Shown here piece after piece: positions 46,781 through 57,884 of a stretch of 64,000 nucleotides of DNA. Source of the DNA: a phage. The stretch lies in assembly GCA_027262695.1 (NCBI GenBank), contig GCA_027262695.1_4722.1; one strand, 5' to 3'. Every line of letters begins with the position of its first letter. The stretch's first letter is position 1. Both the position numbers and the translations under genes were made by a program. A model generated the notes under the pieces. It was not told the DNA's origin and ran no database searches. It saw only the letters and a list, made by a program, of their open reading frames with translations.

Positions 46781-49700
46781 TTATCTTACGTTATTGCTAT
46801 TCTGCTGTTCACTGAACCAACCATAGACTTTGAGATCGGTACCGTATCTCAGTGCAAGGTATGCGTTCATCGCAGCACAGAACAACGTCGCGTAGTGCCA
46901 TAAGAGCTCAACATCCATGTCATCGGGAGTCTTGGTAAAACCAGCACCTGGTACAAAGCGTGACGGTTCATGCATGAACGTGCGGTACCAGTCGTGCTGT
47001 TGTTGTTTCGTCGTGAAATCACGGTGTGGTTCTAACGCTTCTCTTGCAAGACGACGATACTCGAGAAGATGATGATTAGCCCGATTATCGCGAGGGTAGC
47101 TTACTTCGTAGTTAGGATCGACAGCTTGGCATAACGCTGTTGAGTCTAATAACTCGATGGCTTTGACTAACTTATCGCTCGCGTTGGTGATGAGCGCCGA
47201 TCTGTAATACTCGATCGAATTAGCAAGTTGCGAATAGAAGTCATCTAAGGCATCTGGATTTGATACCTGCAGATCAAGACCTAATGTCCACGGATAGCTG
47301 CTTTCATCATTGAGTTGCGGTACGACACCCAGGAGATGTTGGCAGATAGCTGCGTGATTATTGAACTGATCGTGGAAAATAGCTCGTGCAACTTCAATCG
47401 CATGATGATAACTCAAACGCCGTTCCTGACGTGTCGTCCTAAATGAGTTAACGGCGAGCAGTCCCGCGGTAGCCGCGCAAACATCAGTGTCGTTGACGTT
47501 GTTAAGCACATAGTTACTAAGCTGGAAAGATTCTTGCTTCAACGTTCCATTGGTCGCCGTTGCTTCGCTATTCGCTTTATCAACGATGGTGCTTAGCGCG
47601 TTAATATAACGTTTAGCGCGAACTTCCAACCACTGTGCGATCCCAAGCACATCCACAGCCGCTTTAGCAAGGTCACGTGCGTTCACGATTTCGTTCTTCA
47701 ATGCACCCAGCCCTTTATTTTCAGGCGAGGAGGCTTGTTGTCGAATCATGCTGTTTAACATCGTAAGCAGGTTATCCAGCTCGTGTCCGCTGACCTTGTT
47801 ACGTGCGTCAGTAATCGGCCCTTGCAGGAATTTACGACAACCGTCATTATACCGAATCAGTTTATCCACATCGATGGATTCGTTCGTGGTTTCCTTGAAC
47901 TGATTCTTTAATTCTTCACGGTAGTCGTGTATCTCGCTTGTAAGATTATCAACGGTGATACCATTGTGACCAAGAAGAACTTTACTGAAGTTGCCCTTCT
48001 CGAACGCCAGTGCGATGCCTTCACGAATCTTAGCCAGTTTATCCTGATCTAATTCACGACCGTTTGACAGTTCTTTCACTTCAGCACTGATTATTGCTGC
48101 AACCGTTCCAAGGTTATCGGTAACCCCTTTGAACGTGCTTGACCAAACACTTCCCGCTTCAGCGTATTTTGCGATGGTCTGGATACCGACGCTATGTAAC
48201 GACGCTAAACGTTTCTTCGTACCTTCGGTAAGCAATGCATCTTTAGCTCGCGTAAGTTGACTGTTATTGGCTTCCGCTTGCTGGATGGCCGCTTTCGCAT
48301 TCCCGTTACGCCAGCTCTTAACCAACCAATCGACCAAACGTTTCAGGATGTTGATGGTATATTCCATCGTACGTCGTAACGTTTCCCATGCGCTTTCAGC
48401 GGTATAGATCCCACCAACAGTGTACCCTTCCATCTTCAGCGCTTTGGTATCGGTTTGACGTGCCAACCATTCTACCGTCGCAGAACAAACGTTTACGAAC
48501 GCCTCCAGGTAGTTGTAATAGACCTCTGTTGCGGAGGTTTCGTTGAGCTTGGAATGCAGATAAAACTGTTCGTATAGCTCGTCGTCATCACCGAAGGCGT
48601 CGTAGTTCCACAGTTCGGTATCGCAGCCGGTACCACAGAAGACATCCGCCGTTGTAAACTCCTTAAGTGCTTTCGTTGCGTCGTTGGTCAGGAATTTACC
48701 TGTCTCAAGTACGTCGTCAACATTAAGTCTCGGGAGTTCGTCAGTAATTGGGTTTTCCAGCATCAACGTATTGAAGAACACGCTGTACTTGTATCCAAGC
48801 CATTTTGGATAACTGTTTTCAGATATCGTAGACGCCGGTTTGATTTTCTTGGCTTCAGCCAACGTGTCTTCTGCAACCTGATATTGGTTTTCCCCAGCTT
48901 TGATACGTCGTAATGCTTTTTCTTCCAACTGTTTGAGTTTGTTGTGCCGTGCTTGAGCTGGAGCCTCAACCAGTTTTTGTACCGACCGCATGGCGGAAAT
49001 CGCTTCTTTCAATGTGGTGATCGGCATACGAACTTTACCGTCATCGAAACTCAGCGCGCGAGCAATACGTCGACTTACAACAGGTTCGGTATGGATGTTT
49101 CTTTCTACCCACGATTTGTTTGCGTAGGTTTGCGTGATTTGCTGCTGGATCTTTTCAAGATAGCCCCAGCTTTTGGATGCTTTGCCGTCCAAAAGCGGAT
49201 TAGGTCCTTTCTTATCAAAAAGCTTTTTGATAGGATCAAAGAAACCTTCTTGCACGAGATCGATACGGGTGTAACCATCAGCTGCTTCGATTTCTTCTTG
49301 GGTTTTATCCCAGAAGTCGTCGCTCTTTGCAGCAACCGCTGTATCTTTAATGTCCAGGATGATCTGACCCACCGTTTGCGCAAACAGCAAGGCCGCACGT
49401 ACCGATTGTGCGAACATCCGCTGATATTTGATTCGAACGCATTGCATCTGGGTTAGCAGATTCAGTTGCGCGATCCCATCCAAGGTGCTATCTTGAGCAA
49501 GTCCTTCAGCCTTAGCGATAACCTGTTTTACACGTTCAGCGACATCAACGTATTGCTGGCATACATCCCGCAGAATACGTGCTGCGAAGACCCCGGTACC
49601 GATATAGTTCAACAGGTCTTTTAATGACCATTCAGACGGACAATCGGCTGGTGCGGTAGGGAGTAAGCAACCATCACCGTCCATGAATCGCTCTAATGCA

Positions 49701-50386
49701 CTAATATCCTGATTTTCTACTCTCATGGGGATATCAGCATCAGCGGCTTGCAGATCCAGCATCTGTTGTAGGATGTTGGTATCGGTTTGCACAAGCGTCG
49801 CAAGCGCTTGGCTGTGTGCGATTATTGGTAACGCTGGTGACCATACTGCAGCAAGCTTGTCGGCGTGACGTTGAATGGCATACCCCATATCCTCGATCAC
49901 GTCAGGATGCTCGATAACCCCCTGAAGCGTTTGATGCAGCTCACCGAGTTGTTGAGACAGATAGACCATCATGGCGTTGAAGGTTTCGCCATCCTCTTTG
50001 TGGTTGTCCAGACGCTCAAGTTCATGTTGAAGCAATGCGACGAGCTGTCCGTTGCCTTCTTGCTTCAGCTTGCTTTCCATTAACGTAATGGCTTTATCGA
50101 CGATCTGACGCGCTTCACGAAAACCGGTTGTGGAAGGAAGCTCTGTCCATAACGCCAGCGGTTTACCGTCAAGGGCTTCCGGCATCGATAACGAAAGCAT
50201 AGTCAGTTGTTGGCGTGATACTTGCTGTTCACGGTGTAATGTTTCTTTTAACGCCAGGAGATCGTCAAGAAACGCGCCGTTAAGGGCGGTCGTACGCGGT
50301 GTTGAATTAATACCGTCAGTTAATGATTCAAGCACCAGGAGACCGTTATCAGCTGAAGAGAGTCCCGCGGCAAGATATTTGTTCAT
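46781..50386 (-). CDS. very large hypothetical protein (possible virion protein)
   Basis: 1201 aa ORF, largely helical by composition; contains ILKRLVDWLVKSW helix reminiscent of family C. Confidence 0.6.
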   Translation of the reverse strand: MNKYLAAGLSSADNGLLVLESLTDGINSTPRTTALNGAFLDDLLALKETLHREQQVSRQQLTMLSLSMPEALDGKPLALWTELPSTTGFREARQIVDKAITLMESKLKQEGNGQLVALLQHELERLDNHKEDGETFNAMMVYLSQQLGELHQTLQGVIEHPDVIEDMGYAIQRHADKLAAVWSPALPIIAHSQALATLVQTDTNILQQMLDLQAADADIPMRVENQDISALERFMDGDGCLLPTAPADCPSEWSLKDLLNYIGTGVFAARILRDVCQQYVDVAERVKQVIAKAEGLAQDSTLDGIAQLNLLTQMQCVRIKYQRMFAQSVRAALLFAQTVGQIILDIKDTAVAAKSDDFWDKTQEEIEAADGYTRIDLVQEGFFDPIKKLFDKKGPNPLLDGKASKSWGYLEKIQQQITQTYANKSWVERNIHTEPVVSRRIARALSFDDGKVRMPITTLKEAISAMRSVQKLVEAPAQARHNKLKQLEEKALRRIKAGENQYQVAEDTLAEAKKIKPASTISENSYPKWLGYKYSVFFNTLMLENPITDELPRLNVDDVLETGKFLTNDATKALKEFTTADVFCGTGCDTELWNYDAFGDDDELYEQFYLHSKLNETSATEVYYNYLEAFVNVCSATVEWLARQTDTKALKMEGYTVGGIYTAESAWETLRRTMEYTINILKRLVDWLVKSWRNGNAKAAIQQAEANNSQLTRAKDALLTEGTKKRLASLHSVGIQTIAKYAEAGSVWSSTFKGVTDNLGTVAAIISAEVKELSNGRELDQDKLAKIREGIALAFEKGNFSKVLLGHNGITVDNLTSEIHDYREELKNQFKETTNESIDVDKLIRYNDGCRKFLQGPITDARNKVSGHELDNLLTMLNSMIRQQASSPENKGLGALKNEIVNARDLAKAAVDVLGIAQWLEVRAKRYINALSTIVDKANSEATATNGTLKQESFQLSNYVLNNVNDTDVCAATAGLLAVNSFRTTRQERRLSYHHAIEVARAIFHDQFNNHAAICQHLLGVVPQLNDESSYPWTLGLDLQVSNPDALDDFYSQLANSIEYYRSALITNASDKLVKAIELLDSTALCQAVDPNYEVSYPRDNRANHHLLEYRRLAREALEPHRDFTTKQQQHDWYRTFMHEPSRFVPGAGFTKTPDDMDVELLWHYATLFCAAMNAYLALRYGTDLKVYGWFSEQQNSNNVR

Positions 50387-50445: not shown

Positions 50446-53247
50446 TTAAGCTAATTTACCGAAACCGGCTTTTTGCAGTTTCTCGTTGATGATTTTCGCT
50501 TCAGCGAAGACGTAATCGCGGTAGGCGGTCACTAACGCATCCACACGTGAACGCAAGGCTTCTTCGAAGCTATACCATGCGGCGATTTCACGAATCTGTA
50601 CGCTGATATAATCAACGGTTGTGCGAAGCTCGGTTGCGTTTTCTTGCGGGATGGCTTTCACTTGGCGAGCAACATCGCTTAAACGGCGGAACTGTGTTTC
50701 GATTTCTTTAAACTTACTGTCGGCAAGTTTGCTGAACTCATCGCCGGAACGCGTGAACAACAGATAGCTATTACCATCGAGTGCGTTAGCTAACTGCTGG
50801 AGTACATTGGTGTCCGGATACACAGGCGAACCGCTTTGCAATACTTTCTCAGCGAATTCTGCAAAGTCCTTCGGCGGTAAATGCGCAGACGTTGTCCATT
50901 CGTTGTAGCGGAAAGCCAGGGAATTATCATACAGCATCCGGTATGCTTCCATGCCCTGTTTCATGGTACCCGCTAAGTTGGCAAGACGCGGCGCAAGTTC
51001 ACCTTCTTTAGCACGTTTCTGGTCTTCTAACGCCCCTTCCAGTTCTTTGCATTGATCATTCAGATACACGATACGGTCTGGACGGAGACGACGCATTTCA
51101 CGAAGGATGGTATCCAGCTTACCTTCCTGGAAATAACCTAGCGTTAAAGACGTACACGCTTGCTGGAGGCGATCGAATACCGGTAAGGTCACCATCTCTT
51201 TACGGATACCATCAACGATCGCAGAAACAGCCGAAAGTTTCTGCTCTGTGGTTAATGGAACGTCAGAGATCGACTTGCTAGGCGCACCAACAACGCTACG
51301 CATCGCGTCGGTATCCTCGGTTTTATCAACCTCTTTACGAACGCTCTCATTCGGAACATAAACGTTTGCATTACGTTTTGCTTGCTTGATCGCATCGCTG
51401 GCCGCTTTTTCGGTGGCTGCTACGCTATCAGCACGTTTCTTCAAGAGTTCAATAATCCAGAGCAACAGACGACGAATCGCGGTATAGGCCGTTGTGATGA
51501 TAACACCGATAACAGCCATTTTCATGATACCGAACGATTCCATGGTCGGCTCTAACGCCTGGTCTGGCATATACCGTTCACGCAATTCCAGATAGATCTG
51601 TTCGTCCGGTTTACTGACCTCACCGCGATGTGAAGTACGATAAATCGCTTCATCGATCTCAACAAGATCCTTGCGGGCTTGCTGGTCTGTTTTGGACAGA
51701 TAAGCGCAGCCAGATACATCGTCTTCAAAGCTTTCGAACTTAAAGAAATCGACAACCATCTTGGCAAGCGTTTCTTTCTTCGCAGGATCGAGTGTCTTCG
51801 CATCTTCTAATTGCTTATCCGCTTTTTCCTTGAATTTCTCTTTATAGTCATTCAAGGGTTTTACCGCTCTTGCCTTCAACGCGTTATAGATAGCTTTCCA
51901 ATCATCGTCGCGTTCGAGGACAATGAAATGGTTCTTGAGTTCGAAAGCACGGTAACGGGCAACAAGCTGTTCTACCTGAACATGAGCAAGCTGTACATCC
52001 ATCAACCAACGCGACATCGCTGAAATCAAACGACTAAAAGCAAATAGCGTCTGATAAGCGAGTTTCATGTGCTTCTCGTACAGCTCTATATCACCGCTCT
52101 GGATATCGGCTGTTGGATTCATTTCTTTCGTTGCTTTGAAGACCTGCTCTGCTTCTTTCAGCGTCTTTTCGAACTTAATGTCATTAAAAGCCATGAACGG
52201 CTCAGCGAGCTCATGAATTTTATCATGAAGTTCACGAACCCAAGCTTCCTTGTTGTTGCGGATGACGCTTTCATCGCGAAGTTCGGTTTGGTGTTTCTGT
52301 ACCCATTCTTCGACGATATCAGCTGCGGCGACAACACCGATGTTTTTACCAACGAGAGGAACGATGGATTCAAGTGTGCCGCGTCGGATGCCCCATAACC
52401 GATTTACCGAGTCGTGGAACTCTCTGATTTCGGCGACATGTGGAACAATGTCTAAGAAGGTGTTCCCGTTATGGCTCATCGATGAAACCATTTCCGAGAA
52501 TTTCTGGAACTTAATGACGACCTCAGGGATCGTGTACATCAGCCATTCTGCAGTATACTTCGCTTTCTCTTTCAGATTTTTGTCAGCGATTTCCTTAAGG
52601 TTGATCGCACCACCGTATCCCGCAAGTTCGTTGTAAACGTCGTTAAGCGTCATCTGCTTATCCAGCATTTCTTTGAAACGCGGATAATCTGCACCTAACG
52701 CGTCGACGATTTCTTGGATAACGTCGTCTGTGGTAGCAATGAACTTATTTGTGCCGCCGTAATGTTTCCAGATTTTCTGTAACATCTTTTTAAAGAAGTC
52801 AAAGACGAATGTCCAGATACGCTTGATGAGTTCCCAGACTTTCTTCGCGCCATCAACAAAGAGTTTAGACACTTTGGCAACGAAGCCTTCTTGCACTAAT
52901 TCAACGCCGTTACGCGATGGAATTTCCGTGAAGAAAGCATCAGGTAATTGTTTCGGGAACGCATCACCGAGACGCATACGCAGTTCTGGAACGTCGGCAC
53001 GAGAAATCCCGCGGGTTGTTAACTGTTCGTGAAGACGAACGTTTTCTTCACCGGAAGCCACGAATTCATTAACATCGAAGGAAACCATCGCTTCCTGATC
53101 TTCGGTGGTAACGACATTGGAACCATCGCTGGTTTGGATATCTTCGTCAGGGAACGCCATGAGCATACCGTGACGCATTTCAACCACTCCGTAATCGGTG
53201 GCTAAACCGAATTCGTTGTGGTCAGGGGTAATAACTGGGATACTCAT
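50446..53247 (-). CDS. large protein related to paralogue family C
   Basis: 933 aa; LVQEGFVAKVSKLFVDGAKKVWELIKRIWTFVFDFF aligns with EGFKDTVVRALKKIWDIIVDI of 37093-38436. Confidence 0.55.
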   Translation of the reverse strand: MSIPVITPDHNEFGLATDYGVVEMRHGMLMAFPDEDIQTSDGSNVVTTEDQEAMVSFDVNEFVASGEENVRLHEQLTTRGISRADVPELRMRLGDAFPKQLPDAFFTEIPSRNGVELVQEGFVAKVSKLFVDGAKKVWELIKRIWTFVFDFFKKMLQKIWKHYGGTNKFIATTDDVIQEIVDALGADYPRFKEMLDKQMTLNDVYNELAGYGGAINLKEIADKNLKEKAKYTAEWLMYTIPEVVIKFQKFSEMVSSMSHNGNTFLDIVPHVAEIREFHDSVNRLWGIRRGTLESIVPLVGKNIGVVAAADIVEEWVQKHQTELRDESVIRNNKEAWVRELHDKIHELAEPFMAFNDIKFEKTLKEAEQVFKATKEMNPTADIQSGDIELYEKHMKLAYQTLFAFSRLISAMSRWLMDVQLAHVQVEQLVARYRAFELKNHFIVLERDDDWKAIYNALKARAVKPLNDYKEKFKEKADKQLEDAKTLDPAKKETLAKMVVDFFKFESFEDDVSGCAYLSKTDQQARKDLVEIDEAIYRTSHRGEVSKPDEQIYLELRERYMPDQALEPTMESFGIMKMAVIGVIITTAYTAIRRLLLWIIELLKKRADSVAATEKAASDAIKQAKRNANVYVPNESVRKEVDKTEDTDAMRSVVGAPSKSISDVPLTTEQKLSAVSAIVDGIRKEMVTLPVFDRLQQACTSLTLGYFQEGKLDTILREMRRLRPDRIVYLNDQCKELEGALEDQKRAKEGELAPRLANLAGTMKQGMEAYRMLYDNSLAFRYNEWTTSAHLPPKDFAEFAEKVLQSGSPVYPDTNVLQQLANALDGNSYLLFTRSGDEFSKLADSKFKEIETQFRRLSDVARQVKAIPQENATELRTTVDYISVQIREIAAWYSFEEALRSRVDALVTAYRDYVFAEAKIINEKLQKAGFGKLA

Positions 53248-53684
53248 GCATCTTCTCCTTGCAGCGCGTTAGCGAAAGCCGTTGCGAGCTGCGCAACCAG
53301 TTTCGGATCAACGCCTTCTATAACGTCAGGCAGCCCTGCGGTTTCTTGGTCACGAACAGCGGAAGCTAATAACAGCATGGTTTCAGGTGCTGTCGGCTCG
53401 TGTACCATGCGGTAACGCAAGCACCAGAAGTAGCGAGCGACGTCTAACGCATCAGCCAGTCCAATAACCAGCACCTTGTTCAGTTTGTCCAACCCTTCAC
53501 GGATTTTAGGAAGGTGTTCACGCACGAAGATGCTGTCCGCAGTCAGATCTTCCTTTTCAGCGAATACCGGCATGCTGTAACCAGCGACGTATCCAGCAGC
53601 AATACTTAACGCACGGGTTTGTTGTTCAGCTGGGAAATCACGTACCAGGTCTTTCAGTTGAACAGCGAAATCAGAAATATTCAT
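53244..53684 (-). CDS. hypothetical protein
   Basis: 146 aa ORF; ATGA overlap with the downstream gene. Confidence 0.55.
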   Translation of the reverse strand: MNISDFAVQLKDLVRDFPAEQQTRALSIAAGYVAGYSMPVFAEKEDLTADSIFVREHLPKIREGLDKLNKVLVIGLADALDVARYFWCLRYRMVHEPTAPETMLLLASAVRDQETAGLPDVIEGVDPKLVAQLATAFANALQGEDA

Positions 53685-53717: not shown

Positions 53718-55028
53718 TTACGCGATGATGGAGTCGAGTTTCGCTGACGCTTTGAACAGATCGTTGTTCATTGTTGAAGAAAGGACTTGCTGAATCTCTT
53801 CCTGTTTAACGGCTTTACGAACCCCAGGACGAAGGATAAGCGTAACCATCTGCGAGAAGGTACGATTATTGTTCATCACACTCAGTGTTTCATCGATTGT
53901 TTTGATGGTATCCAACGTCATGGAACGAACATCGCTTGGGATATCACGATCTTTCAGGCGTATGATTAAATCTTGTTTGATTTTACGGAATCGTTCCATG
54001 TCGTTATCGTAAATGTTGTATGTTGGATCTAACCAAACCGAAAGCGCGGTTACCGCTACAACAACTAACACGCCGATAGCACCAACAGAAGCTAAACCTA
54101 TCGCCATCATGGAGACGATAGTAGCATCCATGATGAAGGAGAGCCAGAACATCGTTTTGGACTTCATGGAGTTGGTACCATAAAGTCGAAACATTTTAGC
54201 AAGCCCGCTAACGAGATACTCCCCACCACCATGACGCGTAGCGAACTGATCAGCCATGAATTCGGAAGCAACGTCGGTATAGCGTCCAGCGTTGTTGACA
54301 TTTCTTAACTGCATCGCTTTGTTAGAAACATAAACCGTGTACCAGACATTACCATCGTCTGAATCGCTGATTTTGTTTACGTCGACGTTAGTATCCAGCG
54401 TTTTGTTTAACGCCTTAGCCAGTTCAATACGTTTTACCTTATCGGTTGTCCCTAGCAGTTCACGCTGTACAGTCATGATTGAGGCTTCAACACGAACCGT
54501 TTCCGATAATGTTTCAAGGAAAGTAAATGCGTGCCCGATTTCATGCAGCATTATGGCCGCTTTTTCTTCCGGAATAAATGGTTCTGTCGCTGTTAGCAAT
54601 TCATACGTGATGGCGGAACGAATCTTCAATTCCTCAAAGATACCGTAAACACGACCTTTTTCTAAATCGACATAACCGACAGGCGTATCTTTAATCTTCT
54701 TAAGGAGTGTGACACCATCGGCACCGCGCATCCATAATCGATGATAGTCTGCCATGATCGTGTTGTTTGTCGAAATATCCGGCGGGTACACGTAGGCGTT
54801 CATCTGGCCCATTTTCACATCAACCGAAAATTCGATGTTCAACCCTGTATAGCGTTTAACCATCTCGGTTAAATGACCGTCCTTGAAAACGTTTAAAACC
54901 TCTTTTTTATCCAGTCCTTGTTTGCTTCTGAAGAACTCGGTCATTTCCTTGAACAAAGAACCATCCTGGAATTTGATGGCCTCCATCGTTAACTCGTCAT
55001 GACCATACACACGTTGTAGTAATGACAT
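53718..55028 (-). CDS. membrane-anchored zinc metallopeptidase (HExxH, M48/HtpX-like architecture)
   Basis: 436 aa; HEIGH zinc-binding motif in MLHEIGHAF; hydrophobic transmembrane block WLSFIMDATIVSMMAIGLASVGAIGVLVVVAVTALSVWL. Confidence 0.5.
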   Translation of the reverse strand: MSLLQRVYGHDELTMEAIKFQDGSLFKEMTEFFRSKQGLDKKEVLNVFKDGHLTEMVKRYTGLNIEFSVDVKMGQMNAYVYPPDISTNNTIMADYHRLWMRGADGVTLLKKIKDTPVGYVDLEKGRVYGIFEELKIRSAITYELLTATEPFIPEEKAAIMLHEIGHAFTFLETLSETVRVEASIMTVQRELLGTTDKVKRIELAKALNKTLDTNVDVNKISDSDDGNVWYTVYVSNKAMQLRNVNNAGRYTDVASEFMADQFATRHGGGEYLVSGLAKMFRLYGTNSMKSKTMFWLSFIMDATIVSMMAIGLASVGAIGVLVVVAVTALSVWLDPTYNIYDNDMERFRKIKQDLIIRLKDRDIPSDVRSMTLDTIKTIDETLSVMNNNRTFSQMVTLILRPGVRKAVKQEEIQQVLSSTMNNDLFKASAKLDSIIA

Positions 55029-55210
55029 TTTACACTCTCTAAATTTACGTAAATTTAAGGGTTGGTTAAAAGCAGGTTGGCTGGCCTCGCCAATCTGTCA
55101 CAGCCGTTGTGCTGCAACGGCATTCATAGAAATACCTTCGGTTAAAAACAACAGAACGTGAGGATGATATAGAAATTCACCTTCTAACCTTTATTAGAGT
55201 CTATCACGTT
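55029..55210. promoter_or_regulatory. divergent intergenic region containing a hairpin
   Basis: 182 bp between divergent genes; inverted repeat gccgttg-tgctg-caacggc near 55102-55120; no promoter consensus assigned. Confidence 0.3.
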
Positions 55211-56777: not shown

Positions 56778-57884
56778 ATGTCTAGTAGTTACGAGTATCC
56801 AAATATTACTGAATGTGTAATTTCTGAAGAAGGTATCTTCGACCTTGATATGAAACCGTTACCGCTTATCGTGGAAGACGGGATTTCATACGTCAAGCTT
56901 GACTGGTATCGCGGTCCTGGATTGTACGATGCGGGTCTTGTTGTAATGCGTAAGTTACACGCTATCAACATATACGAAGACCTGTTAGATGAAGCACATT
57001 CGCTGTATATCGATGGAAACCCGGAAAACATCAAACGTGATAACCTGCTTTATCGTTTTAAGAACGGTAAGTTGGAACATAAGGGTTACCCAGGCTATTA
57101 CTACGTCCCGTTCTTTACACATTACGTGATAAATGAACAAGGCGAAGTGATCAGTCTATTAACGGGTCAGAAGAAATCGTGGACACGATCAAAAGGAGAT
57201 CCAAAGCGAAACAAACGCGCAGGGTATCTCTATCAACGTGTCGTTAACGACAACGGCTTCACAGCCCAGATGTTTCAACACCGTGCGATGGGTTACGTGT
57301 TCTTGGAATACGGTGCCGATGTGATGACTAAGATCATCAATCACAAGAACGGCATCAAATGGGATAACCGTCCCGGCAACATTGAATGGACAACCTATTC
57401 CGAGAACAACAAGCATGCGGTTGATAGCGGTCTTCGTACCGAAGGCTTGCATCCCGTTAAGGTTAAGGATTACAACACCGGTGAAATCAGGGTATTCCCA
57501 ACGATCGCTGCGTGCTGTGCTGCTTACCCTTGCTTGGAACGTAAACGTGTTTGGTATTGGATGACGCGTAAAACGAAATTCATGCCAGCCTGCAATCTGT
57601 ATTTCAAAGAAGTCGATGATGATACACCATGGCCAGAATGGCAGATTGGACAGCACCGCCGTCTTCAGGAATACGATATGGGCCAGCCTATCGCTGCTAT
57701 CGATAAACAAACCGGTAAACGTTATGTGTTCGCATCAGTCGCTCATGCACAACGAGAGACAGGTGTTTCTAACGTGACTATCACGAAGTACTGTCGTAAC
57801 AGACTCACAGAAGGTCGTTCCCCATTCATCTTCCGTTATTTCGAAGATGTCGGCTCGATGCCTGTAGGTCTTAACGACGCTTAA
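56778..57884 (+). CDS. HNH homing endonuclease (HNH_3 type), intron-encoded
   Basis: 368 aa; strong taaggag SD; catalytic motif INHKNGIKWDNRPGNIEWTTYSENNKH; located 5' of the group I ribozyme core. Confidence 0.75.
   Translation: MSSSYEYPNITECVISEEGIFDLDMKPLPLIVEDGISYVKLDWYRGPGLYDAGLVVMRKLHAINIYEDLLDEAHSLYIDGNPENIKRDNLLYRFKNGKLEHKGYPGYYYVPFFTHYVINEQGEVISLLTGQKKSWTRSKGDPKRNKRAGYLYQRVVNDNGFTAQMFQHRAMGYVFLEYGADVMTKIINHKNGIKWDNRPGNIEWTTYSENNKHAVDSGLRTEGLHPVKVKDYNTGEIRVFPTIAACCAAYPCLERKRVWYWMTRKTKFMPACNLYFKEVDDDTPWPEWQIGQHRRLQEYDMGQPIAAIDKQTGKRYVFASVAHAQRETGVSNVTITKYCRNRLTEGRSPFIFRYFEDVGSMPVGLNDA

Follow-up and report, generated by a model that had tools for sequence, protein, structure and literature searches.

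A capsid-borne M48-type metallopeptidase of phiKZ-like jumbo phages and its possible action at membranes after ejection

Introduction

What use would a phage have for a zinc metallopeptidase that carries a long hydrophobic segment and is encoded among structural genes? The question is raised by an open reading frame (ORF) in a 64,000-nucleotide stretch of phage DNA (GenBank assembly GCA_027262695.1, contig GCA_027262695.1_4722.1), which is referred to in its entirety as the window. The ORF lies on the minus strand at 53718..55028, begins with ATG, has its stop codon within the end coordinate and encodes 436 amino acids. A first-pass annotation had located it at exactly these positions and had described the product as a membrane-embedded protease of the HtpX/M48 type; much of that description stands after closer analysis, although its picture of the membrane topology does not.

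It is highly probable that the ORF encodes a head protein of the Goslar gp67/phiKZ gp84/SPN3US gp45 type, belonging to the phiKZ-like group 1 jumbo phages (Chimalliviridae) and to the M48-type enzyme class. The fuller statement favoured here, in which an M48-type head protein goes on to act in association with a membrane once it has been ejected, has about an even chance of being right. Part of this picture is already in the literature: Iyer et al. (2021, PMC7824862) described the family as a zincin-like metallopeptidase, conserved among group 1 jumbo phages and uncharacterized, and orthologues in Proteus phage 10 and Erwinia phage AH04 already carry a peptidase annotation in GenBank. The identity of the family as a head protein and a metallopeptidase is therefore published and not new. 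What is new is the assignment to M48 with a third zinc ligand, the confirmation in Goslar peptide data of a prohead-protease site that is found family-wide, the behaviour of the hydrophobic segment, and the link to the operon of the capsid vertex complex.

A conserved head protein family

The DNA of the region is 90% identical to that of Escherichia phage vB_EcoM_Goslar, a nucleus-forming jumbo phage, and the ORF product shares 91% identity with Goslar gp67. The family to which it belongs is phrog_2767 (E 8.6e-83 over residues 12-433), which PHROGs labels as of "unknown function". The full-length match to this family, the identity to gp67 and a conserved set of neighbouring genes together place the protein among the gp84/gp45 proteins. 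Besides Goslar gp67, its orthologues are phiKZ gp84 (PHIKZ084, annotated as "structural head protein"), PhiPA3 gp86, SPN3US gp45 and PCH45 gp14; SEGD1 gp047 (AMR59696.1) is 100% identical to SPN3US gp45 and is again a full-length homologue. Across orthologues that span 25-91% identity at full length, the catalytic motifs, the position of the hydrophobic segment, the N-terminal cleavage site and the neighbours are all shared, and nothing essential separates the protein in the window from the other members of the family.

This family is large. By tblastn, more than 200 jumbo-phage genomes contain a full-length relative (276 phage records had matches), and when a profile was run against 1.84 billion representatives, 4,055 clusters matched, the best 150 of which are nearly all 410-450 residues long. 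Within the window there is no paralogue, that is, no second ORF of the family. Two homologues, one close and one at middle distance (P0003 and P0017), lie on 237-239 kb contigs that carry the label Salmonella enterica at NCBI and are probably entire genomes of Goslar-like jumbo phages within bacterial assemblies. Five members (P0173, P0183, P0184, P0187 and P0204) reach 575-1,237 residues through additions at the N- or C-terminus, which may reflect genuine fusions or gene calls that were merged; the added regions had no match in PHROG, and hence give no hint of function.

A complete M48-type active site

The catalytic domain, predicted to be an M48-like zincin, occupies approximately residues 60-285 (54174..54851, minus strand), and two motifs define its putative active site. 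The first is HEIGH at residues 162-166 (54531..54545, minus strand), which aligns with HELGH of human ZMPSTE24 and would supply two zinc-ligand histidines and the catalytic glutamate. The first-pass annotation had pointed to this motif, which is present and invariant across the family. The second, EFMAD at residues 256-260 (54249..54263, minus strand), was absent from that annotation and was key to assigning the protein to a peptidase family: it has the ExxAD form typical of M48 and aligns with RRFEFQAD of ZMPSTE24, so that E256 is predicted to be the third zinc ligand (the equivalent of E415). In an alignment of 46 family sequences reaching down to 21% identity, H162, E163, G165, H166, E256 and D260 are all invariant. 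The pattern also holds in a broader set of 213 family representatives that diverge by more than 50%: HExxH and the downstream E...D are kept in every one of the 213, with a median spacing of 95 residues between H and E, and the six seeming exceptions have ExxCD.

Several lines of comparison connect this domain with M48 peptidases. Remote sequence similarity was found to ZMPSTE24/Ste24p (M48A), HtpX (M48B), BepA/YfgC and the soluble Geobacter protein 3c37. The family profile matches human ZMPSTE24 (M48A) at E 4e-4, with HExGH falling on H335, E336 and H339 and the glutamate of ExxAD on E415, and 17 of the 46 relatives match the Pfam M48 model singly at E<=0.1 (the best at 2.5e-5). Comparison by hidden Markov model, a check that the first-pass annotation had named, aligns both motifs with ZMPSTE24. 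The modelled catalytic domain resembles solved M48 structures in its fold. Among predicted viral structures, Foldseek returned a "Zincin protease" of Bacillus phage AR9, a "Peptidase M48 domain-containing protein" and BepA-like proteins. Foldseek likeness to pore-forming toxins of the ClyA/MakB type was also considered and set aside (E 2-5, not significant).

Two results count against the assignment. Taken alone, the protein in the window scores 11.4 bits against Pfam Peptidase_M48 (PF01435), below the gathering cut-off of 20.3 (E 0.28), and a Foldseek search of the whole model against the PDB gave nothing significant. NCBIfam holds no model that matches the protein. The link to Pfam M48 is accordingly one of remote homology and not of clean membership by the Pfam rule. 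A sceptic could go further and hold that HExxH is incidental in a protein that is no protease at all; the sub-threshold Pfam score agrees with this, as does the fact that PHROGs and most GenBank records assign no function. Given the profile evidence, the fold evidence and an intact, universally conserved active site, this explanation is effectively refuted, and the catalytic domain, though remote, is a genuine gluzincin of the M48 type whose predicted active site is complete. Because all catalytic residues are retained in every family member sampled, we infer from the sequences that the protein is an active zinc endopeptidase and no scaffold relic.

Processing in the prohead and presence in the virion

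Where in the phage life cycle such an enzyme is to be found is answered largely by its relatives. SPN3US gp45 is a head protein from which the prohead protease gp245 removes a propeptide of 20 residues, and the authors of that work liken the propeptide to the T4 capsid targeting sequence (PMC10052503, PMC5694885). When the two proteins are aligned, ...AVASE20/SIGFQ of SPN3US gp45 falls on ...LTME16/AIKFQ of the protein in the window, so that E20 corresponds to E16. The predicted N-terminal propeptide consists of residues 1-16 (MSLLQRVYGHDELTME; 54981..55028, minus strand) and would be cut off by the serine prohead protease after TME-16. The head maturation enzyme of phiKZ-like phages is a serine protease with specificity for S/A/G-X-E (reviewed in PMC13282480). 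S/A/G-x-E, the usual form in the gp84/gp45 family, stands at the aligned position in 37 of 46 homologues, whereas the six sequences of the Goslar clade have T-x-E, for a total of 43 of 46 with [S/A/G/T]-x-E; the P3 residue of the protein in the window is threonine and so lies outside the published consensus.

The Goslar virion supplies a direct observation at this site. The N-terminus of gp67 is identical to that of the protein in the window, and the published virion peptide table lists a semi-tryptic gp67 peptide, AIKFQDGSLFKEMTEFFR, that begins at A17 after a glutamate (10.64898/2026.04.21.720040). Its non-tryptic N-terminus is exactly the predicted cleavage site. The same table contains the active-site peptide AAIMLHEIGHAFTFLETLSETVR, and in LC-MS/MS (tandem mass spectrometry coupled to liquid chromatography) of the virion the protein (gp067) was identified by 19 peptides covering 46.8% of its length, at an estimated 48 or so copies per virion (range 32-76) (10.64898/2026.04.21.720040). 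Incorporation into the prohead, trimming by the serine protease and retention in the mature capsid at roughly 50 copies have been shown in close relatives; the virion evidence comes from Goslar, SPN3US and the phiKZ annotation, and by analogy the same should apply to the protein in the window.

The propeptide itself shows 100% conservation even in relatives whose overall identity is only 47%, and such extreme conservation suggests a targeting function. As a separate observation, conservation extends to residues 1-33 (MSLLQRVYGHDELTMEAIKFQDGSLFKEMTEFF; 54930..55028, minus strand), which are identical in P0007 and P0017, each sharing just 47% identity overall; this suggests a capsid-targeting or docking function, or else a constraint at the nucleotide level. 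Short N-terminal propeptides (8-30 residues) cut after glutamate are familiar from the T4 internal proteins and the other head proteins cut by gp21, although the T4 internal proteins, unlike the protein described here, are not metallopeptidases.

Could the ORF encode the head maturation protease itself? This was ruled out: no Pfam, PHROG or NCBIfam match to the serine prohead protease family was found for the protein, and its SPN3US orthologue is a substrate of the maturation protease. The first-pass annotation had excluded this role on the grounds that phiKZ-like prohead proteases are serine proteases, and its conclusion was correct, but the status of the orthologues as substrates (SPN3US gp45, and Goslar gp67 as judged by the A17 peptide) is a stronger reason than the one it gave.

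A related possibility is that the protein is a second morphogenetic peptidase, making cuts inside the prohead that the serine protease misses, or degrading fragments, with no role after ejection. This was proposed for exactly this family by Iyer et al. 2021 (PMC7824862). It fits with the location of the gene among head genes and with the entry of the protein into the prohead before maturation, since it is processed there; removal of the propeptide could even be a form of zymogen activation within the prohead. The maturation data from SPN3US point the other way, as all 14 mapped cleavages, in nine substrates, were attributed to gp245, about 80% of head proteins are uncleaved, and a propeptide fragment of gp47 persists in wild-type particles, which argues against general clearance of fragments (PMC10052503, PMC5694885). 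A purely morphogenetic role would also leave the conserved hydrophobic segment without a function. On balance, such a role appears unlikely.

A single hydrophobic segment behind the catalytic core

The hydrophobic block of roughly 40 residues reported in the first-pass annotation corresponds to 43 residues at positions 291-333 (54030..54158, minus strand). It contains a single aspartate (D300) and has an uncharged run of up to 32 residues. In the AlphaFold2 (AF2) model, DSSP assigns it to a helical hairpin with helices at 291-313 and 317-333, in a part of the model where the predicted local distance difference test (pLDDT) is about 80. Its propensity to enter a membrane was estimated as a sum over 19-mers on the Hessa scale, which is a crude measure and not a dedicated transmembrane (TM) predictor. 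On this measure the best 19-mer of the block scores -0.95 kcal/mol and the second +2.8, compared to +8.8 for the best 19-mer elsewhere in the protein. Throughout the family the most hydrophobic 19-mer is always at the position of the block (median +0.5 to +0.7, versus about +7.8 elsewhere). The conserved hydrophobic stretch is about 25 residues long in the family and is longer and more hydrophobic in the Goslar clade (about 36-43). Sequence within the block is free to drift: it is 53.5% identical to Goslar gp67, while the rest of the protein is 91-100% identical, and mean hydropathy is preserved. Since the block drifts while its hydropathy stays, composition rather than sequence is under selection, which is typical of segments that face lipid or are loosely packed.

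Behind the block lies an all-helical C-terminal domain in the AF2 model, at residues 340-436 (53721..54011, minus strand). R346 is invariant in it and Y340, D341, K359, L424 and F425 are nearly so; it had no match in Pfam or NCBIfam.

The arrangement is distinct from those of cellular M48 enzymes. Ste24 has a chamber of seven membrane helices, and HtpX has TM helices at its N-terminus and between its motifs. The protein in the window lacks both the Ste24 chamber and the HtpX helices, as well as the tetratricopeptide repeat (TPR) domain of BepA: in the 19-mer scan no TM-grade segment precedes the zinc motifs or lies between them, and the sole block comes after ExxAD. What sets it apart from cellular M48 proteins is this single hydrophobic segment behind the catalytic core, its unique helical C-terminal domain, and its packaging into a capsid (as shown in relatives). 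The label of an HtpX/M48-type membrane protease holds up, then, for its enzyme class, on the evidence of profile, fold and active site, and fails for its HtpX-like topology; a check of that topology gives one borderline TM-grade segment in place of multiple TM helices. The term membrane-embedded is not borne out either. The capsid of relatives is lipid-free, so the term cannot describe the packaged state, and what is conserved is a single borderline segment of about 25 residues in a topology unlike that of HtpX or Ste24.

An M48 catalytic domain plus a hydrophobic segment might still indicate an HtpX-like protease of the inner membrane that works late in the producing cell, on envelope or quality-control proteins or on the timing of lysis, its presence in the virion being secondary. 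Capsids of chimalliviruses have been reported to start their assembly at the cell membrane, where a membrane-associated protein could be picked up. Several features are those of a dedicated capsid component instead: the site for the prohead protease is specific and conserved, the propeptide shows the strict conservation described above, and the protein is present in the virion at a substantial and reproducible stoichiometry, having been found in SPN3US and phiKZ heads as well. Moreover, its gene stands in a string of head genes, not beside lysis genes, and its topology is not that of HtpX. A late membrane protease is therefore improbable, and the involvement in lysis regulation suggested by the first-pass annotation is unlikely for a protein internal to the capsid; the other roles suggested there, on proteins of the host envelope or on an injected protein, may still hold.

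A possible role after ejection

If the protein is packaged in a lipid-free capsid and yet keeps a hydrophobic segment, that segment may find its use after the particle has been emptied. Chimalliviruses inject the virion RNA polymerase (vRNAP) and many head proteins into the membrane-bound early phage infection (EPI) vesicle (10.64898/2026.04.21.720040). Together, the lipid-free capsid, the conserved segment and this ejection of proteins into the EPI vesicle are the basis for the mode of action preferred here. The mature protein of the gp67 type would leave the capsid along with the genome and other ejected proteins; its hydrophobic segment would then associate with, or insert into, the host inner membrane or the membrane of the EPI vesicle; and there the enzyme would cleave a substrate close to the membrane, either a membrane protein of the host or a phage protein that was ejected with it and is still unfolded. 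Such a cleavage would match the habits of cellular M48 enzymes, which act on unfolded or membrane-tethered polypeptides. Considered by itself, this post-ejection, membrane-associated mode of action is a tentative proposal, judged to be somewhat short of an even chance.

There are precedents in other phages for proteins of this general kind. T7 gp14, gp15 and gp16, P22 gp7, gp16 and gp20, and T5 Pb2 are internal to the capsid or tail, contain hydrophobic segments and, once ejected, work at the host envelope; in T5 Pb2 there is a motif of the zinc peptidase type as well. The ejection proteins of T7, P22 and T5 form conduits or digest peptidoglycan. No homology to them was detected for the protein in the window.

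A more specific version of the proposal assigns the enzyme a task at the host inner membrane or the EPI vesicle: delivered by the virion and inserted into the membrane, it could help the vesicle to form or seal, or open it to let the genome pass to the chimallin nucleus, with a protein of the host membrane or a phage protein ejected alongside as its substrate. In this specific form the idea is a long shot.

A number of points weigh against action at a membrane after ejection. First, the hydrophobic segment is weak in phiKZ (+2.4 kcal/mol) and SPN3US (+4.0 kcal/mol, both on the crude scale), a second TM-grade helix occurs in only two of 49 family sequences, and the segment could instead be a buried core or an oligomerisation helix. 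Second, the figure of ~48 copies and the identity of the operon partners (see below) fit a fixed place at the 11 non-portal vertices (55 copies) just as well as they fit ejected cargo. Third, the set of proteins tested for injection in Goslar did not include gp67 (10.64898/2026.04.21.720040), and the literature searched contained no biochemical, injection or essentiality test for any member of the family. Genome-wide studies are silent on the gene: the text of the PCH45 transposon sequencing (Tn-seq) preprint (10.64898/2025.12.19.695335) does not mention gp14, the hit table of the phiKZ antisense screen has no entry for 084 (most structural genes were left out of that screen), and the CRISPRi-ART paper makes no gene-level mention of the orthologue.

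Neighbouring genes and the vertex binding complex

Two genes follow on the same strand. The first (53244..53684, minus strand) lies directly downstream and encodes 146 residues that are 98% identical to Goslar gp66, the orthologue of phiKZ gp85; the second (50446..53247, minus strand) encodes 933 residues that are 89% identical to Goslar gp65, the orthologue of phiKZ gp86. In Goslar both proteins are components of the vertex binding complex, which sits at the inner face of the 11 non-portal vertices (10.64898/2026.04.21.720040). Genes like gp85 and gp86 adjoin the orthologue in all cases examined (phiKZ, PhiPA3, SPN3US, PCH45 and Goslar), and the structural-gene context named in the first-pass annotation can now be given as that of a complex inside the capsid vertex. 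The upstream neighbour runs on the opposite strand and encodes a DNA polymerase fragment 97% identical to Goslar gp68.

Such company raises the possibility that the protein is mainly structural and serves the inner vertex binding complex, or some other assembly inside the capsid, as an accessory, with the hydrophobic segment used for packing between proteins and catalysis dispensable. The protein is co-transcribed, in conserved order, with gp66/gp85 and gp65/gp86, and its label-free quantification (LFQ) value of ~48 copies is within the range obtained for 55-copy vertex proteins: by the same method, gp42 was estimated at ~79, gp65 at ~76 and gp192 at ~17 (10.64898/2026.04.21.720040). The value is compatible with vertex stoichiometry and is no proof of one. 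There is also helical density around the Goslar vertex complex that has no assignment, seen at low contour as a helical bundle. The PF12699 fold, and not gp67, is what the authors compare it with, and gp67 is not resolved in their capsid model (10.64898/2026.04.21.720040). No family member matches any chain sequence in the PDB, including those of the deposited phiKZ capsid; therefore none is built into a deposited capsid structure. Above all, the retention of the zinc ligands, the catalytic glutamate and the ExxAD aspartate in 213 of 213 representatives would be unexpected in a pseudo-enzyme. A mainly structural role is accordingly given little chance. As an observation in its own right, gp67 is largely helical and similar in abundance, yet nothing ties it to the helical-bundle density in the Goslar map.

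Other features of the region

The intergenic region between the divergent gp67 and gp68 genes has two further features. One is a perfect 18-bp palindrome, TAAATTTACGTAAATTTA, at 55040..55057, 12-29 nucleotides upstream of the gp67 start codon. It occurs once in the window, has an exact copy at the same place in Goslar (L001 8972..8989), and may serve as an operator, as part of a promoter or as an RNA hairpin. The other is a GC-rich stem-loop, GCCGTTG-TGCTG-CAACGGC, at about 55103..55121. Scans of the region for sigma-70 promoters and terminators showed no enrichment, and for sigma-70 none is expected, because the phage uses its own RNA polymerases.

Two differences from Goslar were seen nearby. 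An ORF of 1,201 residues (46781..50386, minus strand) is the orthologue of Goslar gp64 (930 residues) and has an insertion of ~263 residues (388-650) not present in Goslar, flanked by sequences that are 95% and 73% identical to it; no Pfam or PHROG family match explains the insert. Beside the DNA polymerase fragment, an HNH/NUMOD1 homing endonuclease (56778..57884, plus strand) is 42% identical to Goslar gp69, compared to 97% for the polymerase gene, which suggests a different endonuclease allele at the site that gp69 occupies in Goslar.

Significance

The gene is conserved in the phiKZ-like, nucleus-forming jumbo phages, and the capsid holds tens of copies of its product, in which all catalytic residues are preserved. 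An immediate consequence is for annotation: the "hypothetical" or "virion structural" labels in most GenBank records and in PHROGs can give way to "M48-like zinc metallopeptidase, head protein". A protease that is borne in the capsid and has a membrane-seeking segment is also a concrete and mutable candidate for a factor in genome entry to, or exit from, a lipid vesicle, and it would be a reasonable target in the engineering or inhibition of therapeutic jumbo phages. Should it prove to work in maturation or in association with the vertex, it would represent a second protease in the assembly of the jumbo-phage head; if instead it does act at the EPI vesicle, chimalliviruses would have in it the first enzyme linked to the membrane stage of their life cycle.

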